Assembly (NCBI GenBank): GCA_963844035.1
Contig: CAWJMT010000031.1
Coordinates: 64,001-128,000, forward strand
Direction: 5' to 3'
DNA: 64,000 bases
Source of the DNA: an uncultured Gemmatimonadales bacterium
Lineage (GTDB): Bacteria > Gemmatimonadota > Gemmatimonadetes > Gemmatimonadales > GWC2-71-9
Below the pieces are notes generated by a model. It was given only the letters and a program-made list of their open reading frames with translations. It was not told the DNA's origin and did not search any database. Position 1 is the first letter of the stretch; each line of letters begins with the position of its first letter. Both the position numbers and the translations under genes were made by a program. Positions 5,010 to 58,835 of this stretch are shown piece by piece.

Positions 5010-6957
5010 CGCCGATCGGATTGAGCGGCGGCACGGCCTCGCGCGGCCGGTCGGGCGCCGCGGCGGCCACCCGCTGTCCCAGGGCGCGCCGGAACACACC
5101 GAGCGGATCGTCGGAGCGCGCCCGCCGGGTCGAGGCGAGCGCGCGGCGGACGTCGTCGGGCGTACGGTCCGCGATCAGGTCCTTGATCTGGTTCGGCCGC
5201 GCCCGGGAATCGAGCCGCACGAGCTGGCGCACCACGGCGTCCTCGAACGGCAGGTCGGTGGCCGGCGGAAACCGCTCCACGCCGTCCCGGCCGCGCAGCA
5301 CCGCGGGCCGCGGAAACCGCACGAAGATCGGCTGCGTGAAATGGGGATGGCGCACCATCAGCTCACCCACGGGGAGCGTGGCCAGCTTGATCTTGATCGC
5401 GGGTGACAGCACCTGGTATCCCGGCGTGGCCAGCTCGTCGTAGTCCATCCGGCCGTACACGGTCGTCGCGGCGTTGCCGACCACGCGGCGGTGGATTTGC
5501 GAGCGGAATTGCTCGGCGCCGAAGAGCACGAGGCCAAGGTAACGTCCGCGCTCAGAGATATCGAGCAACATCTTTTTCACGTACGTCTCCGGTCCGTCCG
5601 CCGATGCGTACTTGTTGAGCTCGTCCACAAACACCACCACCGCATCGACTCCCAGGTCGCGCCGCTCGAGGTGCTCGCGCAGTTTGGAGACGACGCGCGC
5701 AAACACGAGGTCCTGGCCGAGCAGATCCACGTTCGCCACGTCCACCACGTACACGGTGCGGTCCTCGAGCGAGCCCCAAGGCAGATCGTTCGACGGCCCG
5801 TCGTCGGCAACGAGACCCTTGCAACGCGTCGAGATGTTCGAGAGGCGGTTCCGCACCTTGCGGATCGTCGCGATATGGTGGGTGCGCCACATGTCGCCGC
5901 GCCCCGCCGACTCGAGCCCGTCGAAGATGGCGCGAAACAGCGCGTCGAGATCGGCGAACGTCTGCACCCGGTGGGTGCCGCCGAAGCCGTCGGCGAAGTC
6001 CTTGTTGAGCACGCGGTCGGAGAGAAAGTCGATGAACGCGTCGGCCTTCGCGTCGATGTCGTCTCGATTCAACAGCACTTCGGCAAAATCGAGCACTTCC
6101 TGGAGGCCCCACACCAGCGGCTCGACATCACCCACCAGCTCGGGGTGGGTGCGCAGCGTATTGAGGTTCACGCCGTCGGCCTTGAAGGGCGCGTAGTAGC
6201 GCACGCCGGCAAACGGCTGTGGCGCGATGCCGAGCCGTTCGTAGCGGCGCCGATCGGCATCGTCGAGGCTGCCCGGCTGGTCGAGAAAACAGAGGTCGGG
6301 CCCTTTGACGTTGAAACAGACCGCGGCGACCTTGCCCTTGTGCGCCGGGAAGTGCTGAAAGATGGAAGAGAGCAGGAACTCGACCGCACTCGTCTTGGTC
6401 GCGAGCCCCGACACACCGGAGATGTTCAGGTGCGCCGCTTCGGGACCGAGCAGGAAGTCCGCATCGAGATAAACGGGAGCCTCGAGCCCCCCGGATGTGT
6501 AGAGGCCGAGCGGAATCCCGGTGGGCGTGGCGGAGGTGAGATACGCGTCCATGCGGAGCGCTTGCGCGACGTCTGCGTCCGTCGCCACGAACACCTGCCC
6601 CAGCGGCACGGGTTGCAGCGGCTCTTCCGGCTGCTGGCGCAGCACCGCGGCGGTCCACAGGCGGATTTCCTGGCGCATCGTGGGATTCTCGGCAGCGCGG
6701 GCGGGGTCCCCCTCCGCGCCGATCACGTCGTGCAGCGGGGTCGCCAGATCCGAATACGCGAACCCGTCAGTCACCACACCGTGCACCACACGTTCCCCGT
6801 TGCCCGTTCCCCGTTCCCCGTCTTCGACGCGGACGATGGCCCCGATGCCGATCGTGGTCTCGGTCGCGGTCCAGAAATGGAATTGATGCGGCGTGGCGGG
6901 CTTGAGCTCGGTTGCCACGACGCGGCCGATCGGGACGGCACTGCTGCGCTGGATCAC
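4996..6957 (-). CDS. herA: HerA-family hexameric ATPase/DNA translocase
   Basis: N-terminal HAS-barrel-like region, variant Walker A HLNISGVSGLATKTS, Walker B VVFVDE, arginine-finger region ERGRYLG, and A-E-Q motif; directly follows a NurA-like gene. Confidence 0.88.
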   Translation of the reverse strand: MIQRSSAVPIGRVVATELKPATPHQFHFWTATETTIGIGAIVRVEDGERGTGNGERVVHGVVTDGFAYSDLATPLHDVIGAEGDPARAAENPTMRQEIRLWTAAVLRQQPEEPLQPVPLGQVFVATDADVAQALRMDAYLTSATPTGIPLGLYTSGGLEAPVYLDADFLLGPEAAHLNISGVSGLATKTSAVEFLLSSIFQHFPAHKGKVAAVCFNVKGPDLCFLDQPGSLDDADRRRYERLGIAPQPFAGVRYYAPFKADGVNLNTLRTHPELVGDVEPLVWGLQEVLDFAEVLLNRDDIDAKADAFIDFLSDRVLNKDFADGFGGTHRVQTFADLDALFRAIFDGLESAGRGDMWRTHHIATIRKVRNRLSNISTRCKGLVADDGPSNDLPWGSLEDRTVYVVDVANVDLLGQDLVFARVVSKLREHLERRDLGVDAVVVFVDELNKYASADGPETYVKKMLLDISERGRYLGLVLFGAEQFRSQIHRRVVGNAATTVYGRMDYDELATPGYQVLSPAIKIKLATLPVGELMVRHPHFTQPIFVRFPRPAVLRGRDGVERFPPATDLPFEDAVVRQLVRLDSRARPNQIKDLIADRTPDDVRRALASTRRARSDDPLGVFRRALGQRVAAAAPDRPREAVPPLNPIGDDPY

Positions 6958-7958
6958 GTGCCCGTCTTCGGAAGGCGGGAGGTGGACCGCGGGAGCAGAT
7001 CCCGGGGGGCGCGGGTCTTCAGATACGTCTCCACATCATGAATGGGGTAAAGTAGCCGGTCCCAGCGCGGGTCGGGGGTGGAGATCGGCGCGCGCTCGCG
7101 CACCAGCCAGCCGCTCGCCCGGGACGCGGCGGCCACGCCCTCGTCGCGCGCGCACGCTTCGATCCGCAGCAGGCCGAAGAGCAGGTCATTCCCTTCCCAC
7201 GGCCACAGCCGCAGGTACCAGGAGAAGACCTGGTGCCGCGCCCGGCCGCGCGGCCGAAACACGCTCGTGCGGTGCAGCGCCGGAAGGGTGAGCGCGCGGG
7301 TCAGATCGTCGCCCTCGAAGTACTGCGCTCCGTGGCTCTTGATCACACCGAGCGCGCGGGGGTGATCGGCCAGGACGGCGGACTCGGAGAGCACGCCATC
7401 CACCACCAGCCACTCTTCCGGCGCGAGCGAGCGCACGTGCCGCTCGCCCACGCTCTTCTCGACGGCGACGCGGATGTTCTCGACCGCGCGCCGCGCCGCT
7501 TCGAGGGCGCGTCCCGGTTGCGCCGCCTCCTCCGCAACATCCACCAGCTCGATCCCGCTGGCGTCGAGCGCGGCCCGCACGCCGGGGCGCAGCGCCTGGA
7601 GTGAGGCGACGTGGAATTCGCGCGTCGCTTCCACCACGGTGCGGAGCCGCCGTCCGGCGGCGCGGCGCCGCACCGCTGCGGCCACGTGGGCCCGCACGAT
7701 CGGCACGACGCCGTCGTAGTAGGTCACCTTCCAGCGCTGGATACCGTCGAGGAACGACACGACCGGAGGAGGCGATGCCGCCGTGTCGACGGCGTGCACC
7801 CGGAGCTCGGCGTCCTCCACCAGCTCGGCCCCCGCGACCTCTGTCAGATCGGTCCGCCCCAGGCTCTCGTCCGGGACGTGCGACGCCGGCACCGCACCCG
7901 CCGCCACTAACGCGTCGGTCCAGCGCGCGGCCAGGGTCAGCGGGTCCTCAGGGCCCAA
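6954..7958 (-). CDS. nurA: NurA-family 5'-3' nuclease
   Basis: Acidic motifs FLDGIQR and VVDG plus GVIKSH, SWYLRL and C-terminal YPIHDVE; 4-bp overlap with herA. Start position uncertain. Confidence 0.75.
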   Translation of the reverse strand: MGPEDPLTLAARWTDALVAAGAVPASHVPDESLGRTDLTEVAGAELVEDAELRVHAVDTAASPPPVVSFLDGIQRWKVTYYDGVVPIVRAHVAAAVRRRAAGRRLRTVVEATREFHVASLQALRPGVRAALDASGIELVDVAEEAAQPGRALEAARRAVENIRVAVEKSVGERHVRSLAPEEWLVVDGVLSESAVLADHPRALGVIKSHGAQYFEGDDLTRALTLPALHRTSVFRPRGRARHQVFSWYLRLWPWEGNDLLFGLLRIEACARDEGVAAASRASGWLVRERAPISTPDPRWDRLLYPIHDVETYLKTRAPRDLLPRSTSRLPKTGT

Positions 7959-8665
7959 CCGATGTAGGTGACCGTCGTGTCGTCGATGAGGGATCGACTG
8001 CCGTCGCCCGCGCGCCCCACCCCGCTCATCTCCTGCACCACCATGCCGTGACGCGCGAGCTGTTCGGTCAGATCGGCGGGCGGGATGAAGCGGGCGAAAT
8101 CATGGAAACCCTCGGGCATGGTGTGCTCCACGTATTCCTCTTCCCAGATCAGCCGCAGGAACGCGGCGATCGTGCGGTTGTGCGTCAGGAAGCCGAGTCC
8201 GCCCCCGGGGGCCAGCACCGTGGCGATGGCGGCCAGGGTGCGGTCCAGGTTGTCCACGTGCTCCAGCACGTCCACGGCGAAGACGAGGTCGAAGGTGCCT
8301 TCGATCCCCGTGCCCGTCAGGTCCTCGCCGGTACCCCGGTAGTATTCGATCGACAGTCCGGTCTGTGCGGCGTGGTCCCGCGCGGCCGCCAGCGATTTCT
8401 CCGACGGGTCGACCCCGGTCACCACCGCGCCTTCGCGGGCGAGGGCCTCCGACAAGATCCCGCCGCCGCAGCCGACATCCAAGACCCGTTTACCGCCGAA
8501 CCCGCCGAAGGCGTGGCGAAAGTACTCCACGCGGATGGCATTGAGCTGATGCAGTCCCGCGAACGGGCCCTCGCTGCTCCACCATACGCCGGGCGTGCGC
8601 TCCACCAGCCGCTCGTACTTGGCCGCCTCCGGGAGCCCGCCCAACCGCGGTAGGGGATCGCTCAT
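7937..8665 (-). CDS. UbiG-like class I SAM-dependent O-methyltransferase
   Basis: WW..EGPFAGLHQLNAIR, VLDVGCGGGILSEALA and FDLV..DVLEHV motifs are typical of the UbiG family; substrate uncertain. Confidence 0.8.
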   Translation of the reverse strand: MSDPLPRLGGLPEAAKYERLVERTPGVWWSSEGPFAGLHQLNAIRVEYFRHAFGGFGGKRVLDVGCGGGILSEALAREGAVVTGVDPSEKSLAAARDHAAQTGLSIEYYRGTGEDLTGTGIEGTFDLVFAVDVLEHVDNLDRTLAAIATVLAPGGGLGFLTHNRTIAAFLRLIWEEEYVEHTMPEGFHDFARFIPPADLTEQLARHGMVVQEMSGVGRAGDGSRSLIDDTTVTYIGWALRTR

Positions 8666-9294
8666 GAGCCCACCTTCACCGCGACCACCACGCCGTCACG
8701 GATCGGCACGACGGACGAAACGAGCCGCGGGTCGGAGGCGGCGAGCAGGTTGAACGCGCGGACACCCGCCGTGTCGGGAGACTGGTCCGCGGGATCCACC
8801 ACGGCGCCGTGGAAAAACGCGTTGTCGCACAACAGCAGTCCGCCGGCGCGCAGCAGCTTGAGGCTCCACTCGAAATACTGAGGAAGGTTCGCCTTGTCGG
8901 CATCCAGGAAAATGGCGTCGAATCCGGGCTTTAGCGTGGGCAGCACGTCGAGCGCCGCCCCTTCGAGCACCTGGACCTGCGCGCTCAACCCGGCCTCAGC
9001 GAACGCCTGGCGGGCGAGCGATGCGTGGCGCGGGTCTTTCTCGATGGTGGTCAGGCGGCCGCCCGCCGGTAGCGCGCGTGCCAGCCAGACGCCGCTGTAC
9101 CCGGCAAGCGATCCGACTTCGAGCACCGTGGTCGCCCGCACGGCGCGCAGCAGCACGTGCAGCAGTTTGCCTTCGTCCGCGGAGATGTGAATCGGGGGGA
9201 GCTTGAGCCCGGCCTGGCGCGCGCGGATGGTGGTGAGAATCGCGTCTTCGACGGCAAACAGCTCGGTGGCGTAGCGCTCGAGCCGTTCGTCCAC
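8662..9294 (-). CDS. Cation-dependent O-methyltransferase (Methyltransf_3/COMT-like)
   Basis: VLEVGSLAGYS, FDAIFLDADK and GGLLLCDN motifs. Confidence 0.88.
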   Translation of the reverse strand: MDERLERYATELFAVEDAILTTIRARQAGLKLPPIHISADEGKLLHVLLRAVRATTVLEVGSLAGYSGVWLARALPAGGRLTTIEKDPRHASLARQAFAEAGLSAQVQVLEGAALDVLPTLKPGFDAIFLDADKANLPQYFEWSLKLLRAGGLLLCDNAFFHGAVVDPADQSPDTAGVRAFNLLAASDPRLVSSVVPIRDGVVVAVKVGS

Positions 9295-9854: not shown

Positions 9855-11090
9855 ATGCAACGGCGGGAGTTTGTGACGGCGGCAGGAGCGGCGCTGGTGT
9901 CTGGGCGGGAAGGCGGGAAGGCGGGAAGGCGGGTGAATGATCCCGGCCTCCCGCCTTCCCGCCTTCCCGCCGTTCTTCCTCAAGAGCCCACGCTCGGCCC
10001 GGCGATATTCGCTCAACGCATCGCGCGCGCGCAGGCCGAGCTCACGACGCGCAAGTGGGACATGCTCATCGTCGTGCCCAGTGCCAACTATCGCTACTTC
10101 ACCGGTGACCACCCGGGTACGAGCGAGCGCCTGATCGCGCTGATCGTGCCGGCGGCGGGCGATCCCGCCATCGTGTGCCCGGCATTCGAAGTGGACCGCA
10201 TCAAGGCGCATGCGGGCATTCGCGACATCCGCGGCTGGGAGGAGCACGACAACCCGTACGACCTGGTGAAAAAAGTCCTCCGGGCCCGGAAGCCGCGCGG
10301 CACCGGGACGATCGCCCTCGAGGCATCCACCGCGTTCAGCACATTCGTCGGATTGAAGGATGCGCTCGACGGCTGGAAGTTCGAGGACGCGACGGGCGTG
10401 ACGACGCGGCTGCGGCTGATCAAGACTCCGGAGGAAATCGCCTTGATCCGGCGCGCCATCGCCATCACCGAAGAGGCGCTGGCGGCCACGTTCGCACAGC
10501 TCGCGGTCGGGATGAGCGAGCAAGACACGGCGCGGTTGCTTGCGAATGAGATGGAAAAGCGCGGCGCCGAGGGCGACGGCCTGGTGCAGTTCGGCGCGTC
10601 GAGCGCCTTGCCCCATGGCGGACCGGCCGGCGCCACCCTCGAGCGGGAGTCGCCCGTCCTCATCGACTGCGGCTGCCGGGTGGCGGGCTACACCTCCGAC
10701 ATCACCCGCACGATCTGGTTCGGGGAGCACCCCACCCTCGAGTTCACGAAGGTCTACAACCTGGTCCACGACGCCCAGACCGCCGCGATCCAGCTTGGGA
10801 AGCCGCTGTTTACACCCTGCCAGGAGATGGACCGGGCCGCACGCCGGGTGATCACGGAAGGCGGGTTCGGGCCCCAGTTCACCCACCGTCTGGGCCACGG
10901 CATCGGCCTCGACATCCACGAGCCGCCGTATCTGGTCGAAGGAAACGAAACCCGCCTCGAGCCCGGGATGGTGTTCACCGTGGAACCCGGGATCTATCAG
11001 GCGGGGAAGTTCGGTGTGAGGATCGAGGACGACTGCGTGATGACCGAGAGCGGCGTGGTGGTGCTCAGTCAGCGACCGGCGAAGCTCTAA
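9855..11090 (+). CDS. Xaa-Pro peptidase (M24) with twin-arginine signal
   Basis: MQRREFV Tat motif; metal-binding motifs DCG, SDITRT, HRLGHGIGLDIHE, TVEPG and GVRIED; GGAGG RBS upstream. Confidence 0.92.
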   Translation: MQRREFVTAAGAALVSGREGGKAGRRVNDPGLPPSRLPAVLPQEPTLGPAIFAQRIARAQAELTTRKWDMLIVVPSANYRYFTGDHPGTSERLIALIVPAAGDPAIVCPAFEVDRIKAHAGIRDIRGWEEHDNPYDLVKKVLRARKPRGTGTIALEASTAFSTFVGLKDALDGWKFEDATGVTTRLRLIKTPEEIALIRRAIAITEEALAATFAQLAVGMSEQDTARLLANEMEKRGAEGDGLVQFGASSALPHGGPAGATLERESPVLIDCGCRVAGYTSDITRTIWFGEHPTLEFTKVYNLVHDAQTAAIQLGKPLFTPCQEMDRAARRVITEGGFGPQFTHRLGHGIGLDIHEPPYLVEGNETRLEPGMVFTVEPGIYQAGKFGVRIEDDCVMTESGVVVLSQRPAKL

Positions 11091-11099
11091 CCTGGAAGA

Positions 11100-12287
11100 T
11101 CAGTCCCTGAGTTTCTTCGCAAACTCCACGATCTTGCCAAGCGCCCGTTCAACGTCGTTTGTCGCTGCGGCATAGGACATCCGCACGTAGCGATCGTCTC
11201 CAAAAGCGGCGCCCGGAACCATCGCTACACCGGTGGTGGTAATGAGCCGCGTACAGAACTCCGTCCCGCTGATGCCCCCGAACGAGTCCACTCGAAAGAA
11301 GAAGTAGAAGGCGCCCAACGGATCGACGAACTCCACGCCGGGGAGGTCACGTCGGAAGCGCCCGACGACGATATCGCGGCGCTTGCGGAATTCGGCGACC
11401 ATCCGTAACACGTCTTGCTCCACCCGCTCGTCGGCGAGCGCGGCCGCGGCGGCGTATTGCGCCGGATGATTGGCACCGGTCGTCGTGTGCGACTGCAGCG
11501 CCGCCATCGTCTTGGCCACCTTCGACGGGGCGAGCGCCAGCCCGATGCGCCATCCCGTCATCGCGTACGCCTTGCTCACGCCGTAAATCACGATCACGCG
11601 CTCGAGCATCTCGTCGGGCAGATCCAGGAACGACGGCGCCGGGCCGGGGCCGTAATGGATCCGCCGATAGATCTCGTCGGCGATCACCCAGACCTTCTTC
11701 TCCATGGCCCACTGCGCGATCGCCTTGATCTCGCCGTGCGTGTAGACGCCGCCGGTCGGGTTGCAGGGAGAGCACAGGATCAGTCCCTGCGTGCCGGGCA
11801 CCACCCGATCGAGGTCGCGCACGCCGACCTTGAGACTCCACTCCGGGTCCCCCGGCACGAGCACGGGACGGGCGCGCGCGAGGTGGACGATCTGCGGATA
11901 CGACACCCAGGCCGGCGCCGGAATCGCCACGACGTCGCTCGGGCCGAACAGGGTGAAGCAGACGTTGAAGAGCGACTGCTTGGAGCCGTTCGAGACGACG
12001 ATGTTGTCGGCGTTGACGGGGCGGCCGCCCGAGAGCACGGAGAGATGCTTGGCGGCTGCGGCACGCAGCTCGAGGATCCCCTCGTTCGCGGGATAGTGCG
12101 TCTTGCCGTCGCGGATCGCCCGCATCCCCGCCTCGGTGGGAATCGACGGCGTGGGAAAGTCGGGCTCGCCCGCGCCCAGGTCGATCACGTCCTCCCCGGC
12201 GGCGCGCCGCCGCTTGGCTTCCTGGGAGATCGCGATCGTTGCCGAGGTTTCGAGGTGCTGCAGGTTGGGTGAGAACCCTTGGCTCAT
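11100..12287 (-). CDS. PLP-dependent class I/II (aspartate-type) aminotransferase
   Basis: GEPDF, SPCNPTG, DEIY and SKAYAMTGWRIG (PLP lysine) motifs. Confidence 0.93.
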   Translation of the reverse strand: MSQGFSPNLQHLETSATIAISQEAKRRRAAGEDVIDLGAGEPDFPTPSIPTEAGMRAIRDGKTHYPANEGILELRAAAAKHLSVLSGGRPVNADNIVVSNGSKQSLFNVCFTLFGPSDVVAIPAPAWVSYPQIVHLARARPVLVPGDPEWSLKVGVRDLDRVVPGTQGLILCSPCNPTGGVYTHGEIKAIAQWAMEKKVWVIADEIYRRIHYGPGPAPSFLDLPDEMLERVIVIYGVSKAYAMTGWRIGLALAPSKVAKTMAALQSHTTTGANHPAQYAAAAALADERVEQDVLRMVAEFRKRRDIVVGRFRRDLPGVEFVDPLGAFYFFFRVDSFGGISGTEFCTRLITTTGVAMVPGAAFGDDRYVRMSYAAATNDVERALGKIVEFAKKLRD

Positions 12288-12400: not shown

Positions 12401-13691
12401 GTGACGACGGTAGATGAGGCCCGGGCCGCGCTCGAGCGCGGCCGCCCGGTGGTATTGGTGACGCCCCCCGCGCCGGATCAGGCGGGAGCACTCTGGGACC
12501 TGGTGGGCGCGCCGGGGGAAACCCCCAAGGGAAGTCCCGCGCTGGTCATCGTGTGCGCTGGCGAGGGTTTGCCCGCCGAGTGGGCCGCCGCGGCACCCAG
12601 CGACCGTCGGCTCCACGCCGTCACCGGCCTGCGCCGCAGTGAGCGCTGTCTCCGCGACCTCCCCATCGGCGCGCTCGCCGGCACCGTCGCCGATCTCTCG
12701 GCGCTGCTCTCCCGTTCCGCGCTCAAACTCGACACCGTTTCGACCATCGTGGTCGCCTGGCCCGAGCTGCTCATCACCACCGAGCAGGCGGGCGCGCTCG
12801 ACACGCTCCTGAGCGCCGCCACGAACGCCCGGCGTGTGGTGCTGAGCTGGAATCCCGGCATGCTCAGCGACTTCCTGGAGCGGCACGCCCGCCGCGCCGA
12901 GGTGGTGGGAGGGGCGCCGACGTACGACGGCGCGCCCCTGTCGCCCATCGGACCGGCGCGCTACGTGGTCGCGTCCCGTTCCCGCCACGCCGCGTTGCTC
13001 CAGGACGCACTCGATCTGCTCGATCCGAAGCACCCCTTTCGTCTGGGACGGAGGTCCCTGCGATGCGGGCGATGCTCCCGACGCCGTGTTCTGCCTCCGG
13101 CTGCCCACCCGCGAGCAATTCGCGCTCTTGTCGCAGCGGGGCGAGCCGATCGTGTTCCTGGACGCCTCCCAGCTCCCATACCTCCGTTCGATTGCGGCGC
13201 CGCTCACGCCGGCGCGGCTGCCGTCCGCGGCCGATCGGGCCCAGGACCGCGCGCAGGCTATGCGCACGCGGATCGCACAGCTGCTCGAGACGCGGCAGCC
13301 CGACGGCGAGCTCGCGGTGCTGGCGCCGCTGTTCGAGCGTTTCGATCCCGCCGAGGTCGCGGCGGCTCTCCTCGCGATACTGGGGGACGAGGGACGGGGG
13401 AAGGGGGAAGAGGGCGTTCCCGCCGCCGCACCAGCCACCGGTGGCTCAGTGCGGGTGTTCGTCAACGTCGGCACGAAGGACCGCGCCAGCGCCAAGGACC
13501 TGGTCGGCGCGCTCATCAAGGAAGTAAAGATCGGCAAAGGAGAGATCGGCCACATCGACGTGCGGGAGACGTTCAGCGTCGTCGAGGTCGCCGCGGGGGT
13601 GGCGGAGCGCGTGGTGCGGGACCTGTCGGGCGTGACCATCCGCGGGCGCCGCGCGATGGCGCGTCTGGATCGCTACAACTCGCCCGCGTGA
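12401..13691 (+). CDS. Degenerate DEAD-box-like protein with C-terminal DbpA RNA-binding domain (frameshift near 13040)
   Basis: The C-terminus VRVFVNVGTKDRASAKDLVGALIKE..IGHIDVRETFSVVEV..IRGR is DbpA-like. The N-terminal region echoes a helicase domain 1 layout but lacks GKT, DEAD and HRIGR. Confidence 0.7.
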
Positions 13692-13736: not shown

Positions 13737-13770
13737 AATCAGCGCAACCGACGTCTGATGTCTGACGTCT

Positions 13771-14061: not shown

Positions 14062-14201
14062 AGAAGGTCTCCTTGATGAGAGTGGGGCGAGAAACCGCAG
14101 GCCCCACGGCCACTATCTGATGGGTACAGCGGAAAAGCCTCATAACTTGGGCACAATATGGGGATATCCCCCGAGAATCCGCAAGATACGGGCACTCTTG
14201 G

Positions 14202-14271
14202 GGGTCAGGTGTCGGGTGTCAGGTGTCAGGTGTCAGGAAGGCAACCCTAGCACCTGACACCTGACACCTGA
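14202..14271. repeat. Inverted heptamer tandem repeat element (TGTCAGG)n / (CCTGACA)n
   Basis: About 5 TGTCAGG units, a spacer ending in CCTAGCA, then about 3 CCTGACA units. Confidence 0.9.
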
Positions 14272-14286
14272 GCACCTTGTCCCCCC

Positions 14287-15775: not shown

Positions 15776-18676
15776 ATGCCCACAGCACACGCATCCCTGC
15801 TGGCTGCTGATTCGTTCGAGCTCCGTCACCTAGGGCCCCGTCCCAGCGACGTGGACGAGATGGTCCGCACGCTCGGCCATAACACGCTCGACGAGTTCAT
15901 CGCGGCGGTGGTGCCGGAGGACATCCGGCTGAAGCAGCCGCTTGCCCTGCCCCCGGGCCGGGGTGAGGGCGAGGTGCTCCAGGCGCTGCGCGGGATGGCG
16001 TCGCAGAACAAGGTGTTCCGGTCGTTCATCGGGATGGGCTATTACCCCTGCTTCACGCCGCAGGTGATCCAGCGCAACGTGATGGAAAACGCCGGCTGGT
16101 ACACGGCCTATACGCCGTACCAGGCAGAGATCGCGCAGGGGCGGCTCGAGGCGTTGCTCAACTACCAGACGATGGTGTCCGACCTGACGGGCCTGGAAAT
16201 CGCCAACGCCTCGCTGCTCGATGAGTCCACGGCGGCTGCCGAGGCGATGCATCTCACCGAAGCGGCGACCAAGCACGACGGGGATCTTGTGTACCTCGTG
16301 TCCGCAGGATGCCACCCCCAGACGATCGCTGTGGTGCGCACCCGCGCCGAGGTGCGCGGGATCAAGGTGGTGGTCGCCGACCCGGCGACGTTCACGTTCG
16401 GTCCCGGTGTGATGGGCGCGCTGTTGCAGTATCCCGCGACCGACGGCAAGGTCTCGGACTACCGCAAGTTGTGCGAGGCGGCGCACGCGGCAGGCGCGCT
16501 CGTGGCAGTCGCCACCGACCTGCTGGCGCTCACGCTGCTCATGCCTCCCGGAGAATGGGGAGCCGACATCGCGGTGGGGTCGAGCCAGCGGTTCGGCGTA
16601 CAGATGGAATACGGCGGCCCGCACGCGGCGTTCTTCGCCACGCGGGACGCGTACAAGCGCCACCTCCCCGGCCGCATCATCGGCGTGTCGAAAGATCCGG
16701 AAGGGCGGCCGGCGCTCCGCATGGCGCTGCAGACGCGGGAGCAGCACATCCGCCGCGAGAAGGCGACGAGCAATGTCTGCACGGCGCAGGTGCTGCTGGC
16801 GGTGATGGCGAGCATGTACGCGGTGTACCACGGCCCGGAGGGGTTGCTGCGCATCGCGCAGCGCGTTCACACGCTGACGGTCCTGCTCGCCACGGCGCTG
16901 AAGCGCCTGGGCTACCGGATCGTGCACACGGCGTACTTCGATACGCTGTGCGTTGAAGTCGAGCGGTGGGCCTTGCCCCGGTTGCTCGACGCGGCGCGCG
17001 CGCGCGGCATCAACCTGCGTACCATCGACGCCACGCACCTCGGCATCGCCCTGGACGAGCCCACCACCCTGGGCGATCTGGCGGACCTCGTCACCGTGTT
17101 CTCGCTGAACGAGGTGCTGCCGTTCATGGTGGAGGACCTGGGCGCCAAGGCGAGCACGGCGATCCCCGAGGTGTTGCGGCGGACGTCGCCCTACCTGACG
17201 CATCCGGTGTTCCACAAGCACCGCTCGGAAACGCAGATGCTGCGCTACATCGAGCAGCTGGAAGCCCGGGACCTCTCGCTCACGGTCGCGATGATCCCGC
17301 TCGGCTCCTGCACCATGAAGCTCAACGCCACGTTCGAGATGGCGCCGGTCTCGTGGCGCGAGTGGAACCAGCTGCATCCGTTCGCGCCCCGCGAGCAGGC
17401 GCAGGGCTACCAGATGCTGTTCCACCAGCTCGAGGACCAGCTCTCCGAGATCACCGGGTTCCCCAAGGTGTCGCTGCAGCCCAACTCGGGCGCCCAGGGA
17501 GAGTTCGCCGGGCTGCTGGTGCTGCGCGCCTACCACGCGTCGCGCGGCGAGGCGCATCGCAACACCTGCCTGATCCCCGTGTCGGCCCACGGCACCAACC
17601 CCGCGAGCGCCGTGATGGCGGGGCTCAAGGTGGTGCCGGTGCAATCGGACGAGCACGGCAACATCGACGTCGCCGATTTGCGCGCCAAGGCCGCGAAGCA
17701 CCGCGACACGCTGGCGGCGCTGATGGTGACCTATCCGTCCACCCACGGGGTGTTCGAGTCCACGATCCGGGACATTTGCGCCATCGTGCATTCACACGGC
17801 GGCCAGGTGTACATGGACGGCGCCAACATGAATGCGCAGGTGGGACTGTGCCGCCCCGCTGACTTCGGCGCCGACGTCTGCCATCTGAACCTGCACAAGA
17901 CGTTCTGTATCCCGCACGGCGGCGGGGGCCCGGGGATGGGGCCGATCTGCGTGGCCGAGCATCTCGGGCCGTTCCTGCCCGACCACCCGGTCGTGCCGCT
18001 GGGGCATGCGCAGTCGTGCGGCACGGTGTCCGCCGCCCCGTGGGGCAGCGCCGCGATCCTGCCGATCTCCTGGGCCTACATCGCCGCGATGGGACGCGGC
18101 GGGCTGGCGCAGGCGACCAAGGTCGCGATTCTCAACGCCAACTACATCGCGCGCCGGCTCGCCGGTCATTACAACCTGCTCTACTCCGGCCAGCACGGGT
18201 TCGTGGCGCACGAGTGCATCATCGACACGCGTCCGTTCAAGCAATCGGCCGGCGTGGAGGTAGAGGACATCGCGAAACGCATCATCGACTACGGCTTCCA
18301 CCCGCCGACCGTGTCGTTCCCGGAGGCCGGAACCCTGATGATCGAGCCGACCGAGAGCGAGTCGCGGGAAGAGCTCGACCGGTTCTGCGACGCCATGATC
18401 GCGATCCGCGAGGAGATCCGCGAAATCGAAGAAGGACGGATGCCGCGCGGCAACAACGTCCTCACTCACGCGCCGCACACCCTCGAAGACCTGGTCAGGG
18501 ACCAGTGGGACCGGCCCTACTCGCGGGAGCGAGCCGGCTTCCCGGCACCTCACAATCGCCGCCACAAGGTGTGGCCGGCGGTCGGCCGCGTGGACGCCGC
18601 GTCGGGCGACCGGAATCTCGTGTGTGTGTGTCCGCCGATGGAGACGTATACGGAAGAAGCGGCGGTAGGAGACTAG
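15776..18676 (+). CDS. gcvP: Glycine dehydrogenase (decarboxylating), single-chain P protein
   Basis: [49 protein letters not shown] and HLNLHKTF (PLP lysine). Confidence 0.97.
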
Positions 18677-18709
18677 GCGGGCAGGCGGGCGGGCGGGAAG
18701 GCGGGAAGC

Positions 18710-19486
18710 ATGGCGCAGCAGGTTCTCACCGCAGCACAATGGCAAGTCGTCATCGACCCTGCCGGCCGTTCGGGCGCCGAGAACATGGCGATCGATCAAT
18801 CTCTGCTCGACGAGGCCGAGAGATCCGGCTCCGCCACGCTGCGCCTGTACCGCTGGGACCCGCCCTGCCTTTCCTTCGGTCGCAACGACGCCGCGACCGC
18901 CCTCTACGACCGCACCAAAATAGAAGAGCTCGGGATCGACGTAGTGCGGCGGCCCACCGGCGGCAGCGCCGTGTGGCACGAGCACGAAGTCACCTATGCC
19001 GTAGCGGCCCCGATTGATGCGTTCGGCTCGCTACGCGACGCCTACCTCGCGATTCACCGGCGGCTCGCCGCCGCGCTGCAATCCCTGGGCGCCGACGTCA
19101 CGCTCGCACCGAAGGCACGACCCGCCCTCCCGCCTACCCGCCCTCCCGCCTGCTTCGCCTCACCCGTCGGCGGCGAAATCCTGGTCCGCGGCCGCAAGCT
19201 GGTCGGCTCCGCGCAGGTCCGGCAACGCGGCGCGTTCCTGCAGCATGGGTCGATTCTGCTGGATGGATCGCAGGAAATGCTTAAAGCCGTCAGCCTTCAG
19301 ACGTCAGACGTCAGCGGCGCCGTAACGCTGTCTGAGGCGCTTGGCCGAGAGATCACGTTTCAAGAGGTCGCGGAGGCGGTCGTCGCGGCATTTTCCGACC
19401 GCCTGACCGCCGCCTCATCCGACCGCCGCTCCACGCGACCGCCGCATGGCCCCTTTCTCGACCCCTCCTGGACCTGGCGCCGCTAG
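18710..19486 (+). CDS. Lipoate-protein ligase/octanoyltransferase (LplA/LipM-like, catalytic domain only)
   Basis: NMAID, LRLYRW, VVRRPTGG, CF, KLVGSAQ and LQHGSI motifs; adjacent to gcvHP. Confidence 0.88.
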   Translation: MAQQVLTAAQWQVVIDPAGRSGAENMAIDQSLLDEAERSGSATLRLYRWDPPCLSFGRNDAATALYDRTKIEELGIDVVRRPTGGSAVWHEHEVTYAVAAPIDAFGSLRDAYLAIHRRLAAALQSLGADVTLAPKARPALPPTRPPACFASPVGGEILVRGRKLVGSAQVRQRGAFLQHGSILLDGSQEMLKAVSLQTSDVSGAVTLSEALGREITFQEVAEAVVAAFSDRLTAASSDRRSTRPPHGPFLDPSWTWRR

Positions 19487-25078: not shown

Positions 25079-25126
25079 GCAGGCGGGTGGGCGGGCAGGC
25101 GGGCAGAGAATTCCGAGGATGGTGAT

Positions 25127-41111: not shown

Positions 41112-41164
41112 GGAGGGAGATAAGATACTGCGGACGCGAGACGTCAGACATCAGACATCTCCTA

Positions 41165-46472: not shown

Positions 46473-47182
46473 TCGCTTCCCTCACACGGCGCGAGCTGCT
46501 GGCCCGCACCGCGAGCGTGGTGGTGTCCCAGGCGCTGTTCGGGTGCGGCGACGACACGATCGCAGCGGCCAGCGCAAGCGGAGCCTGTGTGCTGACCGCC
46601 GCGCTGACCGAGGGTCCCTTCTTCGTAGACGAAATGCTCAACCGGTCGGACATCCGGAGCGATCCGACAAGCGGCGTGGTATCCGCGGCGTGCCCCTGCT
46701 CCTCACCTTCAATGTGTTCCGGGTGGCGAGCGGCGGGTGCACACCGCTCACCGGGGCCTACATCGATGTCTGGCATTGCGACTCGGGAGGCGCGTACTCG
46801 GATGTCTCGGGTGCGGGCAGCGGACAGCGCTTCCTGCGGGGCTATCAGATGACCGACGCCGAATGGTATCGCCCGGTTCACGACGGTGTATCCCGGCTGG
46901 TACCAGGGGCGCGCCGTGCACATCCACTTCAAGCTGCGGCTGTTCGCCGGCGCGACCAAGACCTACGAGTTCACGTCGCAGTTCTTTTTCGAGGATTCAC
47001 TCACGGACACGGTGTACGGGCAGAGCCCGTACAGCTCCCGCGGGACGCGGAGCACGCGCAATTCGTCAGACGGGATCTACGACTCGCTCTCGAACGCGGC
47101 GAAGGGCGCGCTGACGCTGCAGACCACGGTTGACGGCAGCGGCTACGCCGGCGTGATCAATCTGGATGTGAATGTGGGATGA
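46463..47182 (+). CDS. Intradiol ring-cleavage dioxygenase-like protein with Tat signal (frameshifts)
   Basis: TRRELL, TEGPF, IDVWHCD..G.YS, FLRGYQ and YPGWY.GRAVHIH. Confidence 0.82.
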
Positions 47183-47184: not shown

Positions 47185-47256
47185 CAGGTGTCAGGTGTCA
47201 GGTGCCAGGTGTCAGGTGAACGATCCTAGCACCTGACACCCGACACCTGACACCTG
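47185..47256. repeat. Inverted heptamer tandem repeat element (CAGGTGT)n / (CACCTGA)n
   Basis: About 5 forward units, spacer AACGATCCTAG, about 4 inverted units, between convergent genes; same family as 14202-14271. Confidence 0.9.
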
Positions 47257-47263: not shown

Positions 47264-48576
<1,313 letters not shown>

Positions 48577-49058: not shown

Positions 49059-50052
49059 TCACGGGTTCCGCCGCGCAAAGATGTCGTCGAGCACCACCTT
49101 GTCGATCTTCCCATCCATGCGCACGCGCACGTCGTAGTTCTCCCAGTACATGAAGTTCGCGAGCGCGTTCAAGAATTTCGGGTTCGCCACGCCCTGAGGC
49201 GCGTCGAGCCACTTCTCAGGCTGATTGAGCGGCTCGCGCAGCAGGATCGGCTCGAGCCGCTTCACGATGGCCGGCGTGATGGGAAGCAGGTCCTCGGGCC
49301 GGCTCGTGAAGAAATAGAGCCGGTGCAGCTGGTAGAGGCGGGACAGCTCGCGCAGCGGATTGGTGTCGTCGTACACCCGGATGTCGATGTAGCGGTCGTT
49401 CAGGCCGAGGTAGCCCGCCGTTCGGGCGCACCACCAGTAGCGCGGCGGACTCCATTCCGCGCTTATCCCCGCCGCCCGCCTGTCCCGCCACAAGCGCCGC
49501 CATCAGGCGGTCCGCGAGCGCGCCGGGCGTGCGCTGGAACGCCTCCGCCATGTTCTTCACGGTCTGGTCCGACACCATGATGTTCGCCTGCGCGGCGAAA
49601 TATTTGCCGGCGATCAGGGCGCCCTTCCCGCCTGCCCGCCCTCCCGCCTGCCCGCCTACTCTCCCTCCCGCCCAATCAAAGCACGAGTCTCCCGTCCAGC
49701 TCGCCGCGTTGCCCCGGGCGTCCACCATCCCCACCTGGCGTTGCGCCGGCCGCGGATCGCCGCGCATCACGATCGCCATCACCTCCGGGGCGGTGGCGCC
49801 GCGCGCCATGAGATCGAGACCCTTTTCGCCGTAGTCGGTGTTGCCGAGTGACTGGGTGGCGACCGCCCCGACGCCCGATCGGGCCCAGGGGACAATGCCG
49901 CCGACGTTGGGGAATTTCGACTGCACCGCGACGCCCAGGTCGCCGGTGGCGGAATCGTAGGCGACGATGCTGTAGGTGTGCGCGCGCTTGAGCAGATCCG
50001 GCGGGCGGGCGGACGGGTGCTGCACCATGAGTGCGGCGAGCAGGATGAGCAC
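49059..50052 (-). CDS. DUF1028 (Ntn-hydrolase-like) protein, exported (frameshift near 49420)
   Basis: HTYSIVAYD..TGDLGVAVQS, GVGAVATQS, RQVGMVD and GGDKRG.ESAAL. Confidence 0.85.
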
Positions 50053-54648: not shown

Positions 54649-55067
54649 ACCTGGCATTTCCGTCGTCCGAGTGGATCGCGGCGTACCGCGACCAGATCAA
54701 CGCGAGTACGACCTACCGCCAGGCGTCCACCGAATGGACCCACGGCGCCGTCGCCCTGGTGGTGAACCCGCAGCCGGCGATCGGGCTGGCCGAGGCAGTC
54801 GGGATATGGCTCGACCTGGAGCGCGGCGTCTGCCGCGCGGCGAACGTGGTGACGGCCAGTGAGGCACTGACGGCGCCGTTCGTCCTCACCAGCGACTACG
54901 GCCGCTGGAAGGAGGTCATCCGCAAGGAGCTCGCGCCGGTCGCCGGCATCATGCAGCGGAAGATCGTTCTCCAGGGCTCGCTCGCCATCGTGGTGCGGTT
55001 CATCAAGTCCGCCGAAGCGCTGGTGGAAGCAGCGACGCAGGTGCCGACGCGATTTCTGGACGAGTGA
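54645..55067 (+). CDS. SCP2 sterol-carrier-like lipid-binding protein
   Basis: FPSSEW..., WLDL..G.C, W..V...L.PV.GIMQ.K..L.G. Confidence 0.75.
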   Translation: MNLAFPSSEWIAAYRDQINASTTYRQASTEWTHGAVALVVNPQPAIGLAEAVGIWLDLERGVCRAANVVTASEALTAPFVLTSDYGRWKEVIRKELAPVAGIMQRKIVLQGSLAIVVRFIKSAEALVEAATQVPTRFLDE

Positions 55068-55080
55068 GAGCTACAACGGC

Positions 55081-55108
55081 GGTGTCAGGTGTCAGGTGTC
55101 AGGTGTCA
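55081..55108. repeat. Heptamer tandem repeat (GGTGTCA)x4
   Basis: Single arm of the 14.2-kb/47.2-kb element, between convergent genes. Confidence 0.85.
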
Positions 55109-55116
55109 GAGACGAC

Positions 55117-55824
55117 TTACATGCTCCGCAGGATCTTGTCCGGCGTCGTGACGTTCGGGAAGAACACGCGGTCGCTCAGCCGGTTGAACGCGACCCGCAG
55201 CGCCGGGAAGCGATCCGCCGCGGCGCGGAAGATGGCGGCGACGCCGAAGTGGTCCGCGAGCCGGTGACGCGACGCCAGGTCGTAGCCGTGGCGCCCCAGC
55301 TCGTCATAGTAGGGAAGATCGGGACCGCCGGCGCGGCTGCGCCGTGCCGCGATGTAGTCCGGGAAAAGTCCCGCGAGCCACAAGGCGTAGTTCCCGAGGT
55401 GCATCTGGAGCAGGAATCCCCGCTCGCCGCCTTCACCGGACTCAGCCAGGCCCGCCACGATGTCCACCAGATAGTGGTAGGACGCGTCGTCGGCCTGTCG
55501 AATCCGGGCATGCCGGTCGTGGCTGCCGAACTCGAGCAGCAGCGCCGCGAGGTAGTCCGCGAGGTCGCGATCGTCCACGCCCCCGGCGAGCAGCGTGTGC
55601 CGCACCGCCACGTACGCGAACAACGGCGGCGACGGCTGAACGAGGGAGCGCACCGCCAGCAGCGCGGCGAGCAGCGCCGGGTCGTCGAGCAGGCGATCCG
55701 GGCCCTCCTCCAGGAGCAGGCGCTCGCAGCGCGCGCGCCGCGCGGCGTCGCCGCGCCCGAGCGCAAGTACGACCAGCCGCAGGTCCACGGCCCGCAAACG
55801 GCTGCGCAGGTTCGCTAGAATCAT
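55117..55824 (-). CDS. Conserved hypothetical protein
   Basis: [10 protein letters not shown]...ADYLA.LL.EF..HLGNYALWLAGLFPD; typical codon usage. Confidence 0.75.
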   Translation of the reverse strand: MILANLRSRLRAVDLRLVVLALGRGDAARRARCERLLLEEGPDRLLDDPALLAALLAVRSLVQPSPPLFAYVAVRHTLLAGGVDDRDLADYLAALLLEFGSHDRHARIRQADDASYHYLVDIVAGLAESGEGGERGFLLQMHLGNYALWLAGLFPDYIAARRSRAGGPDLPYYDELGRHGYDLASRHRLADHFGVAAIFRAAADRFPALRVAFNRLSDRVFFPNVTTPDKILRSM

Positions 55825-57776
55825 GACCACTCCTTCCACCGGTTCAGCACCGCGCGACAGCTCAGCCCTGCTGACGCTCCTCACCACGCTGTCCCAGGAG
55901 CTCACGGGCGCCTACCGCCCGGCGACCGCCGTGGAGCTGGCGGCGCGCACCCTGGTCGAGGTCCTCGCTCCCAGCCGCATCACGATCGTGTTGCTCGATG
56001 CGGAGACCAACAAGCTAGCGGTCGCCTACGATTCGGCGCCCGAGCCCGCCGCCGTCGACGATCCCCTGCTCCAAATGGCCCTCCGGCGCGGGCCGCTGCT
56101 GCTCGCCCGCAACGTCGCCGCCGAGGCCCGCAAGGTCGGGGTGGCGCTCGGCCCCGACGCGCCGGACTCGTGGATCGGCGCACCGCGTCGTCGCCGCGGG
56201 ACAACTCATCGGCGCCGTGTCGGTGTCCGCGGGGCGAGTCCCACGCATTCACCCAGCGCGACTTGCTCATCGTCGGCGCGGTCGCCGCCCAGGTCGCTAT
56301 CGGGCTCGAGAACGCCCGGCTCGTCGAGCTGCTCTCGAGCGCCAAGCGCGAGTGGGAGCAGACGGTCGACGCCATCACCCAGGGCATCTGCATCATCGAC
56401 GCGGAGGGACTCGTGCGCCGCGCCAACCGCGTGTTCGCCGAGCTCGTGCAGACGCCCGTCACCGCGATTCCCGGCCGCCCCTGGCTCGCCCTGCTGCCAC
56501 CAGGGTGGGCCGATCCGGTGGGCCGCGCGGTGATGGAGCGCACCCCGAGCACCGTTGAGCTGCGGGCGGGCGACCGTCCGCTCATGCTTTCGACCATTCC
56601 GCTCGCCGACCGCAGCGCCGTCCTCGTCTTCGAGGACCAGACCGACAAGCGCCGGCTGCAGGATCAGCTCATACAGTCTGAGAAGATGTCCGCGATCGGT
56701 CAACTCATCGCCGGCGTGGCCCACGACCTCAACAACCCGCTCGCGTCGGTGGTGGGGTTCTCGGACTTCCTCATGGACGCGCGGCGAGGTTCCCCCCGCG
56801 CTCGTCGAGCCGCTGCAGGTGATCCGCCAGGAGGCCGAGCGCGCCGCCACGATCGTCAAGAACCTGCTGTCGTTCGCGCGCAGCCAGGAGGGCGAGCGGA
56901 AGGTCCAGCCGATCGGACCGATCCTCGAGTCCACGCTGGCCCTGCTGCGCAACCAGCTCATGGCCCACAAGGTCGAGGCGACGCTCGAGATCGAGCCCGA
57001 CCTGCCCGAGCTGGAAGTGAGCGCGAATCAGATCAAGCAGGTGTTCGTGAACATCATCAACAACGCCGCGCAGGCGATCGCCAGCGACCAAGCGCAGCGG
57101 CCGGATCTGGATCACCGCCAAACGCTGGCTCGACGGCGTGGCCATCGCCATCGCCGACAACGGCCCCGGCATCCCGGAGGCGATCTCGCAGCACGTGTTC
57201 GAGCCGTTCTTCACCACCAAGCAAGAAGGCGAAGGCACGGGCCTCGGCCTCTCGATCTGTCAGGGCATCGTGAAGGAGCACGGAGGCAGGATGACGCTCG
57301 ACACGCGGCCGGGCGCGGGAGTGACGTTCACGGTCGAGCTGCCGGGCGGGTTCGACCACGCCGCGCCCCTCCCAGGCGATCGAGACCCTCGTCGACACGC
57401 CGCCCGCTGCGCGTGCTGGTCGTGGACGACGAGCCGCACATCCTCTACTACATGCGCTCGACGCTGGAGAGCTGGGGCCACACGGTGGAGGTGGCCACCG
57501 ATGGGGCGTACGCGCTCGAGCGGATCCTGGCCGATCCGTTCGACGCGATCATCTGCGACCTGCGCATGCCCCACCTCGGCGGCCGCGAGATGTATCACCG
57601 GCTGGCCCAGCAGAACCCGCAAGCGGCCACAACGGATCATCTTCGCCACCGGCGACACGGTCCGCGGCGATACCCTGCATTTCCTCGAGGCCCTGGGACG
57701 GCCCTACCTCCATAAGCCGTTCACCCTCGCCGAGCTCCGCCACATGCTCGGGCGGGTGGTGGCCCAGCCGCACTGA
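55823..57776 (+). CDS. Hybrid sensor histidine kinase GAF-PAS-HisKA-HATPase-REC (several frameshifts)
   Basis: GAF end [15 protein letters not shown]-box [12 protein letters not shown]-box NIINNA, DNGPG, FFTTK, GTGLGL; REC VLVVDDE, CDLRMP and KPFT. Confidence 0.88.
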
Positions 57777-58835
57777 GCGACCTCTGCGGGTTCTCCAGAT
57801 CGACTCCGGCCGCCAATGGCGCGGCGGACAGAACCAGGTGCGATTGCTCGCGCGCGCCCTCCGGCAGGAGCATGGGATCGAGCAGCGGCTGGTCACGCGG
57901 CGGGGCAGCGAGCTCGCCCGCCGCGCCGCGCAGGACGGCGTCGCCGTCCGGGAAATCGCGTGGGCGATGGGGCTCGACCCGCGCGCCTGGTGGCACCTCG
58001 TAACGGAAGGCCGCGACTTCCGGCCCGACGTGATCCACGCGCACAACAACCACGCTCTCTCGCTCGCGCTCTGGGCCAGGACCGCCCTCCGCCGCCGGCC
58101 GGCCGCCGCACCTCGTCGTCACGCGCCGCGTCCTGTTCCCCGTGCGGCCCGGAAGCGCCCTGTTCCGCGCCGATCGCATCATCGCGATCTCGGAAGCGGT
58201 ACGGGTCGCGCTCGTCGCCGCCGGGATACCGCCGGCGCGTATCGCGCTCGTCCCCTCCGGCATCGACCCGGACGATGTGCGGCGCGCCGCCGCCTACCCA
58301 CTCGGGATCCGCGAGCGGCTCGGCCTCCCCGCGGCGACGCCGCTGGCCGCGAACATCGCGGCGCTCGAACACGCCAAGGACCAGGCCACGCTCATCCGCG
58401 CCGCGGCGCTCGCCCATGAGCACCGCGCCGATCTTCATTGGGTGATCGCGGGTACAGGACCGCTGCGGCCGGCGCTGCTGGCCGAGGCGGAGCGGCTGGG
58501 CCTGACGGACCGGATGCACTTCATCGGCTGGACCGATCACCCGGAGGCATTGATGCGAGAGGCCGATGTCTTTGTGATGTCGTCCCGCACGGAGGGTCTG
58601 GGGACGATCGTGCTCGACGCGCTGGCACTCGGCAAGCCGGTGGTCGCGACGAGCGGAGGCGGCCTGTCGGAAATCGTCCCGGCGGAGTGGCTCGTCGGCG
58701 TGGGCGACGCCGCGGCCCTGGCGCAGAAGGTCGTTCGTGCGCTGGAGCGACCCTTCCCCCTTCCCCCTTCCCTCGCAGTACACCGCCACGGCGATGGCGC
58801 AGGGCGTGTTGGCCACGTATCGCGCCCTCGCCTAG
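57775..58835 (+). CDS. Glycosyltransferase family 4 (frameshifts; start approximate)
   Basis: LRVLQIDSGRQWRGGQ, PDVIHAH, SGID, KDQ.TLI and SSRTEGLG..LDAL..GKPVVAT. Confidence 0.87.

Follow-up and report, generated by a model that had tools for sequence, protein, structure and literature searches.

We analyzed a 64,000-nucleotide (nt) stretch from an uncultured Gemmatimonadales bacterium (GenBank assembly GCA_963844035.1, contig CAWJMT010000031.1, positions 64,001 to 128,000; the window), in which short arrays of degenerate 7-mers and 8-mers lie at gene junctions and in frame inside proteins. The source assembly (G000) is 3.47 Mb long, 84% complete, and 69% G+C; other G numbers denote relative genomes. 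Runs of the same four-unit kind bracket genes of the PF05635 four-helix family in mirror image. They belong to a known class of four-unit repeats, which is tied here to an undescribed cassette system. All 15 stretches that an original prediction, made by a model from the letters of the window, had listed are present where it placed them and with the units it named. The arrays, their arms, and one empty cassette junction are as follows.

6791..6821, minus strand: 7-mer array of GGGAACG type, 4.4 copies, in frame in the open reading frame (ORF) at 4996-6957
9904..9933, plus strand: left arm of an inverted pair, GGCGGGAA in 3.8 copies, in frame at the N-terminus of an M24 peptidase
9941..9971, minus strand: right arm of the M24 peptidase pair; pairs or arms of other units are found there in G006, G002, G009, and G015
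11088..11102, no strand: empty junction with two convergent stop codons; a whole cassette lies there in G002 and G006
13384..13414, plus strand: 7-mer array of GGGA[A/C][G]R type, in frame in the linker ahead of a DbpA domain
13750..13770, minus strand: 7-mer array of GAC[G/A]TCA type, 3 copies, beginning at the HU stop codon
14200..14237, plus strand: left arm, GGTGTCA in 4.9 copies, of an inverted pair upstream of coaE; the unit is that of a resident cassette arm
14251..14277, minus strand: right arm of the coaE-upstream pair, partner of 14200..14237
18675..18705, plus strand: 8-mer array, GGCGGG[A/C][A/G], beginning within the gcvP stop codon
19121..19150, minus strand: 8-mer array in a loop of the lipoyl ligase, in frame; G006, G009, and G002 have other units
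19285..19315, plus strand: 7-mer array of G[A/C]CGTCA type, in frame in another loop of the lipoyl ligase; G002 and G009 have other units
25079..25106, plus strand: 8-mer array directly after the stop codon of an oligopeptide ABC ATPase; absent in G006, G004, and G003
41133..41159, minus strand: degenerate 7-mer array past the stop of a TonB-dependent receptor ORF
47185..47218, plus strand: left arm, GGTGTCA in 4.9 copies, past the stop of the ORF at 46886-47182
47230..47256, minus strand: right arm of the 47185 pair, past the stop of the convergent POT gene
48543..48574, minus strand: very degenerate 7-mer array of GCCATCA type in the POT N-terminus; missing from the Tandem Repeats Finder listing
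49620..49672, minus strand: 8-mer array in a loop of DUF1028, in frame; G001, G002, and G006 have related arrays
55081..55109, plus strand: solo array, GGTGTCA in 4.1 copies, between convergent genes; G009 has a pair of another unit there
58751..58772, minus strand: 7-mer in 3 copies in a Pro-rich GT4 loop; the weakest case

Three of these places (9904-9971, 14200-14277, and 47185-47256) form inverted pairs whose folding z-scores range from -8 to -10, a feature that the original prediction overlooked. Pfam recognizes the M24 peptidase, the DbpA domain, HU, CoaE, GcvP, the lipoyl ligase, POT, DUF1028, and GT4, and the gene that the prediction called herA matches no Pfam family. An Rfam scan of the window gave 0 matches, and the Gut-1 RNA motif (RF01706) was not matched there at gathering score.

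Tandem Repeats Finder (TRF) lists 14 of the 15 predicted stretches at a score of ≥30; the exception, 48543-48574, is too degenerate. Counted as rows of period 7 or 8 with a score of ≥35 and ≥2.9 copies, the window has 16. In 54 chunks of 64 kb from a fifth-order Markov simulation, the mean is 0.35 and the maximum 2. Periods 5, 6, 9, 10, and 11 give 0, 1, 1, 0, and 2 rows in the window. Within the called genes of the window, there are 7 rows, against a mean of 1.14 and a maximum of 3 in 50 codon shuffles. Over the genome, TRF finds 100 period-7 and 113 period-8 rows at a score of ≥45, with none of either in simulated sequence, and a fixed-length scan finds 109 and 111, against 1 and 0 in the Markov simulation. 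Strong enrichment is confined to these two periods, and the genome total is 262 arrays at a score of ≥40. The dispersed family proposed from the window alone is thus real and far above chance.

The arrays follow a common plan. Four full units are present in 140 of 227 parsed arrays. At the edges of the four-unit arrays, the expected purine precedes in 98/140 and a G follows in 105/140, after which the match drops to background; the usual array therefore has five purine-G anchors. Starts at or just after a stop codon, with the G-rich strand as sense, account for 79 of the 262 arrays (about 8 expected), and gene interiors are depleted (55/262 observed, about 171 expected), with coding arrays on both strands (36 and 19). 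The class "other" (83/262 arrays) is inflated and the start-codon classes are rough, because gene calls span just 75% of the genome. Where neighbors lie <150 nt apart, 56 of 59 pairs face inward with the G-rich arm first; 150/262 arrays have no close partner. These overrepresented 7- and 8-nt units, the mode of four copies, the after-stop placement, and the inward pairs are the marks of the four-unit heptamer/octamer class.

At least eight unit families coexist in G000, 8-mers are as common as 7-mers, and several units lack a three-G tract. Variation within units is position specific and resembles a binding logo. The first G of the GGTGTCA family is invariant (244/244), and T has become C 26 times at one T and once at the other; position 7 of the GGCGGG family is A 81 times, C 49, T 20, and G 3. 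Arrays are mostly unique strings of a few unit variants (39/53 and 41/42 distinct). The 56 spacers between paired arms all differ and include terminators and coding DNA, with a weak match to a cassette interior in 1 of 19 spacers of ≥20 nt. A non-autonomous element, as originally suggested, does not fit spacers that all differ and that are in some cases conserved host DNA. Array behavior is unlike that of slippage products or copy-paste elements.

The four-unit mode (140/227), the stop-codon starts (79/262), and the inward pairs (56/59) also set the arrays apart from microsatellites. Ordinary slippage, together with low-complexity codons in a 69% G+C genome, is an extremely unlikely source of the class: no period other than 7 and 8 is strongly enriched, the codon-shuffle control is exceeded, and slippage predicts neither the fixed copy number nor the orientation and stop-codon rules nor the match to cassettes described below. 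It draws some support from the GT4 case, a Pro-rich loop with a partly common peptide and a probable assembly indel, and from the 29 of 55 interior arrays that come from one G-rich family without a cassette in the assembly. We conclude that slippage is contradicted for the class overall and may hold for single weak arrays.

Some arrays of G000 and its relatives are of unusual composition or arrangement. The A+T-rich 8-mer arrays at C20:13732-13860 and C22:757, one of them an inverted pair, sit on small contigs of G000, are unlike the other families, and are possibly foreign DNA or contamination. At C27:46328-46430 and C3:405366-405480 in G000, arms flank an ordinary intrinsic-terminator hairpin between convergent genes, and one of these two arm pairs combines two different families. 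Three adjacent arrays in G018 (L018:6005-6197) each have a different unit, and a single array in G020 (L011:10933-10993) grades between two units.

G000 has eight PF05635 matches at seven loci, seven of them above the Pfam cutoff. All seven loci are bracketed by inverted arrays as judged by eye (six by score cutoff), with five different units. Cassette units in G000 or its relatives include the GGCGGGAA, GGCGGTTA, GACGCTAA, and GGGACGR types. Each of the seven cassettes lies between protein-coding genes, and within 2 kb no cargo gene besides host genes was found between arms in G000. The original prediction had named four-helix-bundle proteins among the small families in which a partner might be sought, and this suggestion proved sound; the partner genes lie outside the window, which holds no candidate enzyme, as it had also stated. 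Its other candidates, a reverse transcriptase or a RAYT-type transposase, gained no support, with no PF00078 match in the 84%-complete assembly and an array within 800 nt at 0 of 4 Y1-transposase places. Frameshifts seem to affect three of the seven cassette genes, in keeping with the assembly error rate. Three of the loci are diverged copies of one junction on separate contigs (C9:145127-145438, C30:5309-5620, and C1:103422-103583), near contig ends or on a short contig, and probably reflect a strain mixture in the assembly.

The same arrangement holds in relatives. An inverted flank match (score ≥30) is present at 87/97 PF05635 loci (one contig-end locus left out), against a direct flank match at 5/97 and 22/765 for mismatched pairs. 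Further loci give 37/39 (one dropped), and a third, partly overlapping set gives 71/76 (four dropped). The family occurs in 128 of 151 genomes sampled from the bacterial family, with 0 to 18 matches per genome, and the best 80 relatives of one cassette protein include 79 from Gemmatimonadota. When aligned, 7-mer units from 86 cassettes read R-Y-N-R-G-N-N, with the G in 97%, and one protein clade (49 to 67% identity) retains mostly R-C-G-G-N-N-R-G units. In some cassettes (L057, L061, L062, L054, and L078), the arms are long, their units measure 10 to 15 nt, and the interruptions are partly mirrored. A sigma-70 promoter between the left arm and the gene was considered and dropped (6/136 versus 10/136 in shuffled sequence). 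At L152:1340-1930 in G018, inverted repeats of a longer ATCTGCGG-type unit enclose a GxxExxY gene (TIGR04256), suggesting that another family of cargo genes is built in the same way; GxxExxY was found in 1 of 5 relatives and 0 times in the 84%-complete G000.

Cassette proteins score 109, 58, and 88 bits with TIGR02436 (cutoff 24) and 25 to 32 bits with the Avd model NF033474 (cutoff 80). They are homologous to Xcc0516, whose structure has five chains (PDB 2GSC; E = 4e-26); a single-sequence structure model was poor (pLDDT 56) and was not used. No polymerase domain was found in the cassette protein.

The units of the arrays follow the cassettes that a genome carries. In G000, 128/262 arrays match a resident cassette unit within one mismatch; in the window, the arm unit at 9904 is that of the cassette on contig C27. 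An orphan family, GGGAC/AGR, has the unit of a cassette found in G002 and G006 where G000 has an empty junction (window 11090-11100). Of 69 arrays in orthologous regions (the window and mnmE) of 14 relatives, 24 have a match among the cassette arms of their own genome, with 3.4 expected and 0 of 5,000 label permutations reaching that number. Across four units and 21 genomes, 11 of 12 genome-unit pairs with the cognate cassette have ≥11 matches, whereas 8 of 72 without it have ≥10; here cognates were assigned by eye, and the counts overlap and take in the cassettes' own arms. Array density rises with the number of PF05635 genes (Spearman 0.70; 20 genomes), and 93 kb from five genomes without PF05635 contain a single array, but G022, one of the five, has 17 matches to one pattern in other places. 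These coupling figures are overstated, since kin genomes are not independent. As far as the sequences go, the link between arrays and cassettes acts in trans.

Paired arms fold into long stems, and they might be RNA elements whose arms pair in the transcript, to be cut by RNase III like 23S intervening sequences (IVS), or form G-quadruplexes, with solo arrays as decay products. Precedents exist on both counts: the Coxiella IVS encodes a protein of the same family and has 28-bp terminal repeats, heptamers, and an RNase III cut (as described in PMC4990558), and Xanthomonas repeats form G-quadruplexes in vitro (in the text of PMC4692102). Yet the cassette stems show no excess of G-U over A-C mismatches on the sense strand (245 versus 257), and 31 gene-less G000 pairs with an inferred sense strand have a G-U deficit (11 versus 33 A-C). 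The lack of a G-U excess argues against selection for a duplex in mRNA and favors recognition of each arm, probably in DNA. Moreover, most arrays (150/262) have no close partner, many units lack a G-tract, and cuts within housekeeping ORFs would do harm. We regard RNA hairpins as a very unlikely explanation.

Comparison of orthologous sites shows that the arrays turn over. The junction at 11088-11102 is empty in G000 and G015, and in G002 and G006 a cassette (arm, PF05635/TIGR02436 gene, and inverted arm) adds about 460 to 490 nt. Conversely, three cassette junctions of G000 are, in relatives, empty or occupied by a pair or a cassette of another unit or by an older remnant with a newer pair (G009 and G004 were left out at one junction because the left anchor failed). 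One junction gives a series from a cassette through an other-unit cassette and an internally deleted cassette to a short remnant; the deleted copy, in G002, retains 22 C-terminal codons (blastx, 2e-5). A shared stop-codon overlap of 4 nt occurs twice at one filled site; three other junctions show no such doubling. Directly before coaE, pairs of seven other units are found in seven relatives (G016, G006, G002, G009, G017, G020, and G028). The 47230-type arm was not found in the 160 nt beyond the POT stop in 10 relatives. At 55081, the array is a net insertion of about 23 to 36 nt (89 nt versus 53 to 66 nt in four array-less relatives).

Inside proteins, the picture is mostly one of replacement. 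Both lipoyl-ligase loops change unit from genome to genome; loop 1 measures 58 to 62 nt between anchors in four array-bearing genomes and 48 to 68 nt in others, and the inverted arrays at 18675-18705 and 19121-19150 flank 414 nt of host coding DNA. The DbpA linker has related units in several relatives. The POT and GT4 sites are unchanged in length: G006 and G002 have an array-less stretch of equal length at the POT N-terminus (G017 has an other-unit pair upstream), and the GT4 loop is of equal length in 8 orthologs, which partly share its peptide. In the DUF1028 loop, the non-repeat version of G015 and G016 has one more residue. A clear gain within the window is seen only at 6791, of about 4 to 7 residues: in most array-less orthologs the loop is 4 to 7 residues shorter, and G006 and G002 have related arrays there.

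MnmE, encoded outside the window, gains 0 to 8 residues and has two inverted arms, in frame, in the loops flanking its conserved TKAD motif. The arm units are GGGGAAG in G000 and G001, GGGGACG in G006, and GCGGGAA in G004 and G005; other 8-mers occupy the second loop in G009, G015, and G016, and no MnmE arrays were found in G003, G008, G010, G012, and G014. The units of G006 and G004 are those of their own cassettes. Because the MnmE arms flank conserved host DNA, they are not leftovers of one inserted and collapsed cassette and must have been laid down or retuned independently of the gene.

From these alignments, arrays in proteins appear mostly to replace loops of similar length rather than to extend them. 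The claim that new protein segments are being created does not hold for the lipoyl-ligase, DUF1028, POT, and GT4 loops, which are better read as rewritten. The expected turnover between relatives at the same sites was found, mostly without a length gain and, in GT4, with a partly common peptide. The arrays keep frame at several protein loops, as was proposed; the 58751 array shifts the GT4 frame in the present assembly. One C at 58754 is missing from close-relative contigs in 3 of 4 runs from one study and is probably an assembly error. With contigs of a close relative lacking this C and the assembly rich in indels, the perfect threefold repeat at 58751 is partly an assembly artifact. Of the template-like process envisaged at the outset, a single class of arrays that lies above chance, turns over, and is tied to a gene family is retained; the non-autonomous element and the new segments are not.

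Sites of a useful host regulator that binds nucleic acid, arising and retuned by point mutation and selection with no writing step, would account for the logo-like variation, for the loops of equal length, and for sites that persist across the genus with both arms switching unit together. Sites for a regulator have been proposed for Geobacter arrays (in the passages of PMC2700814 on those elements). This explanation would need many coordinated, often nonsynonymous changes at hundreds of sites, and it sits poorly with intergenic arrays that add roughly their own length of sequence (as at 55081), with coding arrays on either strand (36 and 19), and with genes that are patchy (0 to 18 matches per genome) and change places. 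We consider it quite unlikely.

We propose that the arrays are binding sites of PF05635 proteins, laid repeatedly over tolerant host DNA by conversion or template switching, a reading to which we would give an about even chance. That the PF05635 protein recognizes the runs is likely. The cassette protein would be a five-subunit ring, as its homology to Xcc0516 and Avd suggests, and might hold one invariant G per subunit interface, which would fit four units plus a fifth purine-G anchor. In the weakest step, the bound ring would promote short-homology conversion or a template switch by host repair enzymes, with an arm as the donor. A new arm would overwrite about its own length of DNA, an event covering both arms would move the gene, and selection would retain an event only if it fell past a stop codon, in a spacer, or in frame within a flexible loop.

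Several results weigh against this proposal. Families without a cassette in the assembly account for 106 of the 262 G000 arrays, with 28 more unassigned; at orthologous sites, 45 of 69 arrays have no resident arm match; and G018 has 100 matches to a unit that none of its four PF05635 loci carries. The arrays are not unit-order copies of master arms, contrary to a simple conversion model, no target-site duplication is consistent across the junctions compared, and stacking of arrays of different families is not beyond chance in G000 (3 seen, 1.7 to 7.7 expected). We looked for a residue-to-base code in 69 nonredundant 7-mer cassettes (76 of the 86 are complete; a distant clade and truncated rows were left out). 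The best z among 666 column-by-position tests with within-clade permutation was 4.05, and nothing stands out; the highest raw information, in one helix-3 column (z 3.3), is indistinguishable from shared descent. With no such code within clades, the coupling of protein and unit could itself reflect shared descent. Finally, no catalytic domain or helper enzyme was found, with no GxxExxY gene or reverse transcriptase in the 84%-complete G000 and no Y1 transposase flanked by arrays, and we know of none for PF05635 proteins.

Alternatively, the ring and a host polymerase might write the four units de novo where DNA has an end or a gap, copying no nucleic-acid donor and making a fresh draw of permitted variants each time. 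De novo writing would give the fixed copy number and sharp ends, strings that differ in nearly every array and carry no cassette flank, and inverted arms that flank conserved host sequence, as at the TKAD motif of MnmE, and are not leftovers of one cassette; moreover, a reverse transcriptase requires the homolog Avd as its partner. On the other side, no reverse transcriptase was found in the 84%-complete assembly, the cassette protein has no polymerase domain, and purifying selection on binding sites yields the same logo. We judge de novo writing unlikely. A broader version, in which a transposase-free, selfish, Avd-like pentamer specifies and writes its own four-unit array, in pairs, over stop-codon spacers and protein loops, is rather unlikely. 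As to mechanism, conversion or template switching is favored over de novo writing, point mutation, RNA hairpins, and slippage.

Similar repeats are known from other bacteria. In Xanthomonas (GGGAATC) and Nostoc, heptamers prefer four units, lie with the G-rich strand as sense within 50 bp past a stop, and form 70 to 75 convergent inverted pairs per genome, with a minority intragenic (Rehm et al., 2015, main text; PMC4692102). The four-unit preference, after-stop placement, and inverted pairs recur in G000; however, that text describes one unit family per species, read as G-quadruplexes, whereas G000 has at least eight families, common 8-mers, and a tie to cassettes. The terms "xcc0516" and "transposase" are absent from the main text, the part of the paper covered here. 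Geobacter metallireducens has four tandem 7- or 8-mers, inter- and intragenic, often paired on opposite strands at a variable distance and proposed to be regulatory RNAs or global-regulator sites (Aklujkar et al., 2009; PMC2700814). They share the four tandem 7- or 8-mers with G000, and no cognate protein is named for them in the main-text passages covered. The TAACTGA repeats of Beggiatoaceae, dispersed sets of 2 to 6 heptamers with no known mechanism, are nearly all direct repeats, unlike the inverted pairs of G000, as told in the main text of PMC4679880, from which "helix bundle," "S23," and "intervening sequence" are absent.

Other systems resemble the cassettes or the in-frame arrays. The 23S rRNA IVS of Coxiella and Leptospira places an S23p (PF05635) gene between complementary termini with heptamer repeats (PMC4990558, in the part covered). 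The G000 cassettes likewise have complementary termini around an S23p-family ORF; unlike that IVS, they are not in rRNA, most arrays are gene-less, and there is no sign of selection for RNA pairing on the sense strand. In the Avd structure, as presented in 10.1101/2023.10.23.563531, all five protomers contact RNA, and flipped-out bases lie in crevices between protomers; Avd is thus a homologous four-helix pentamer that binds nucleic acid through every protomer. G000 differs from a diversity-generating retroelement in that NF033474 stays below its cutoff and no reverse transcriptase was found, and from REP/RAYT systems (repetitive extragenic palindromes and their transposases) in that 0 of 4 Y1-transposase places are near an array. 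Rickettsia palindromic elements, about 150-bp copies with a conserved peptide, add a segment in housekeeping genes (PMC10969869, in the part covered). They and prokaryotic miniature inverted-repeat transposable elements are, like the G000 arrays, palindromic DNA in frame within unrelated housekeeping genes; unlike them, the arrays have no common internal sequence and no constant peptide and mostly bring no length gain. A literature search of mostly non-subscription papers (main texts without supplements) found no paper joining the PF05635 family to dispersed repeat arrays.

The quality of the assembly bears on gene ends in the window. Over 21.8 thousand aligned residues, G000 shows 13 frameshift-like breaks (with some double-counted in overlapping frames), versus 0 to 2 in five relatives. 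Compared with a relative's proteins, the breaks in the window lie at 13036, 25451, 39944, 49415, 52698, 54218, 56185-56783, and 59383; they are consistent with uncorrected long-read indels, and the ORF ends of the window need care. Elsewhere in the window, the HU-coaE interval (14130-14200) is about 600 to 800 nt longer, with one extra gene, in L001, L002, L005, L008, and L009; this gene is missing in G000 and G001 to G005.

No mechanism has accompanied the published reports of four-unit arrays in Xanthomonas, Nostoc, Geobacter, and Beggiatoaceae, and PF05635 has a structure and no known function; judging from the cassettes, the PF05635 protein may explain this long-unexplained class of bacterial repeats. 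The genome supplies pairs of protein and unit for such work, with five units in one genome and more than 100 pairs in relatives. For annotation, the arrays account for odd Gly/Arg/Glu-rich and Pro/Ser-rich stretches in Gemmatimonadales proteins. Turnover at the same sites in housekeeping genes is loop change driven by a signal at the DNA level, in which the peptide is replaced and the length is about kept. If the pentamer is a selfish writer, each incoming cassette would retune hundreds of sites, rewriting loops of MnmE and lipoyl ligase, and such cassettes would be the source of bacterial four-unit heptamer repeats and of ORF-bearing rRNA intervening sequences.

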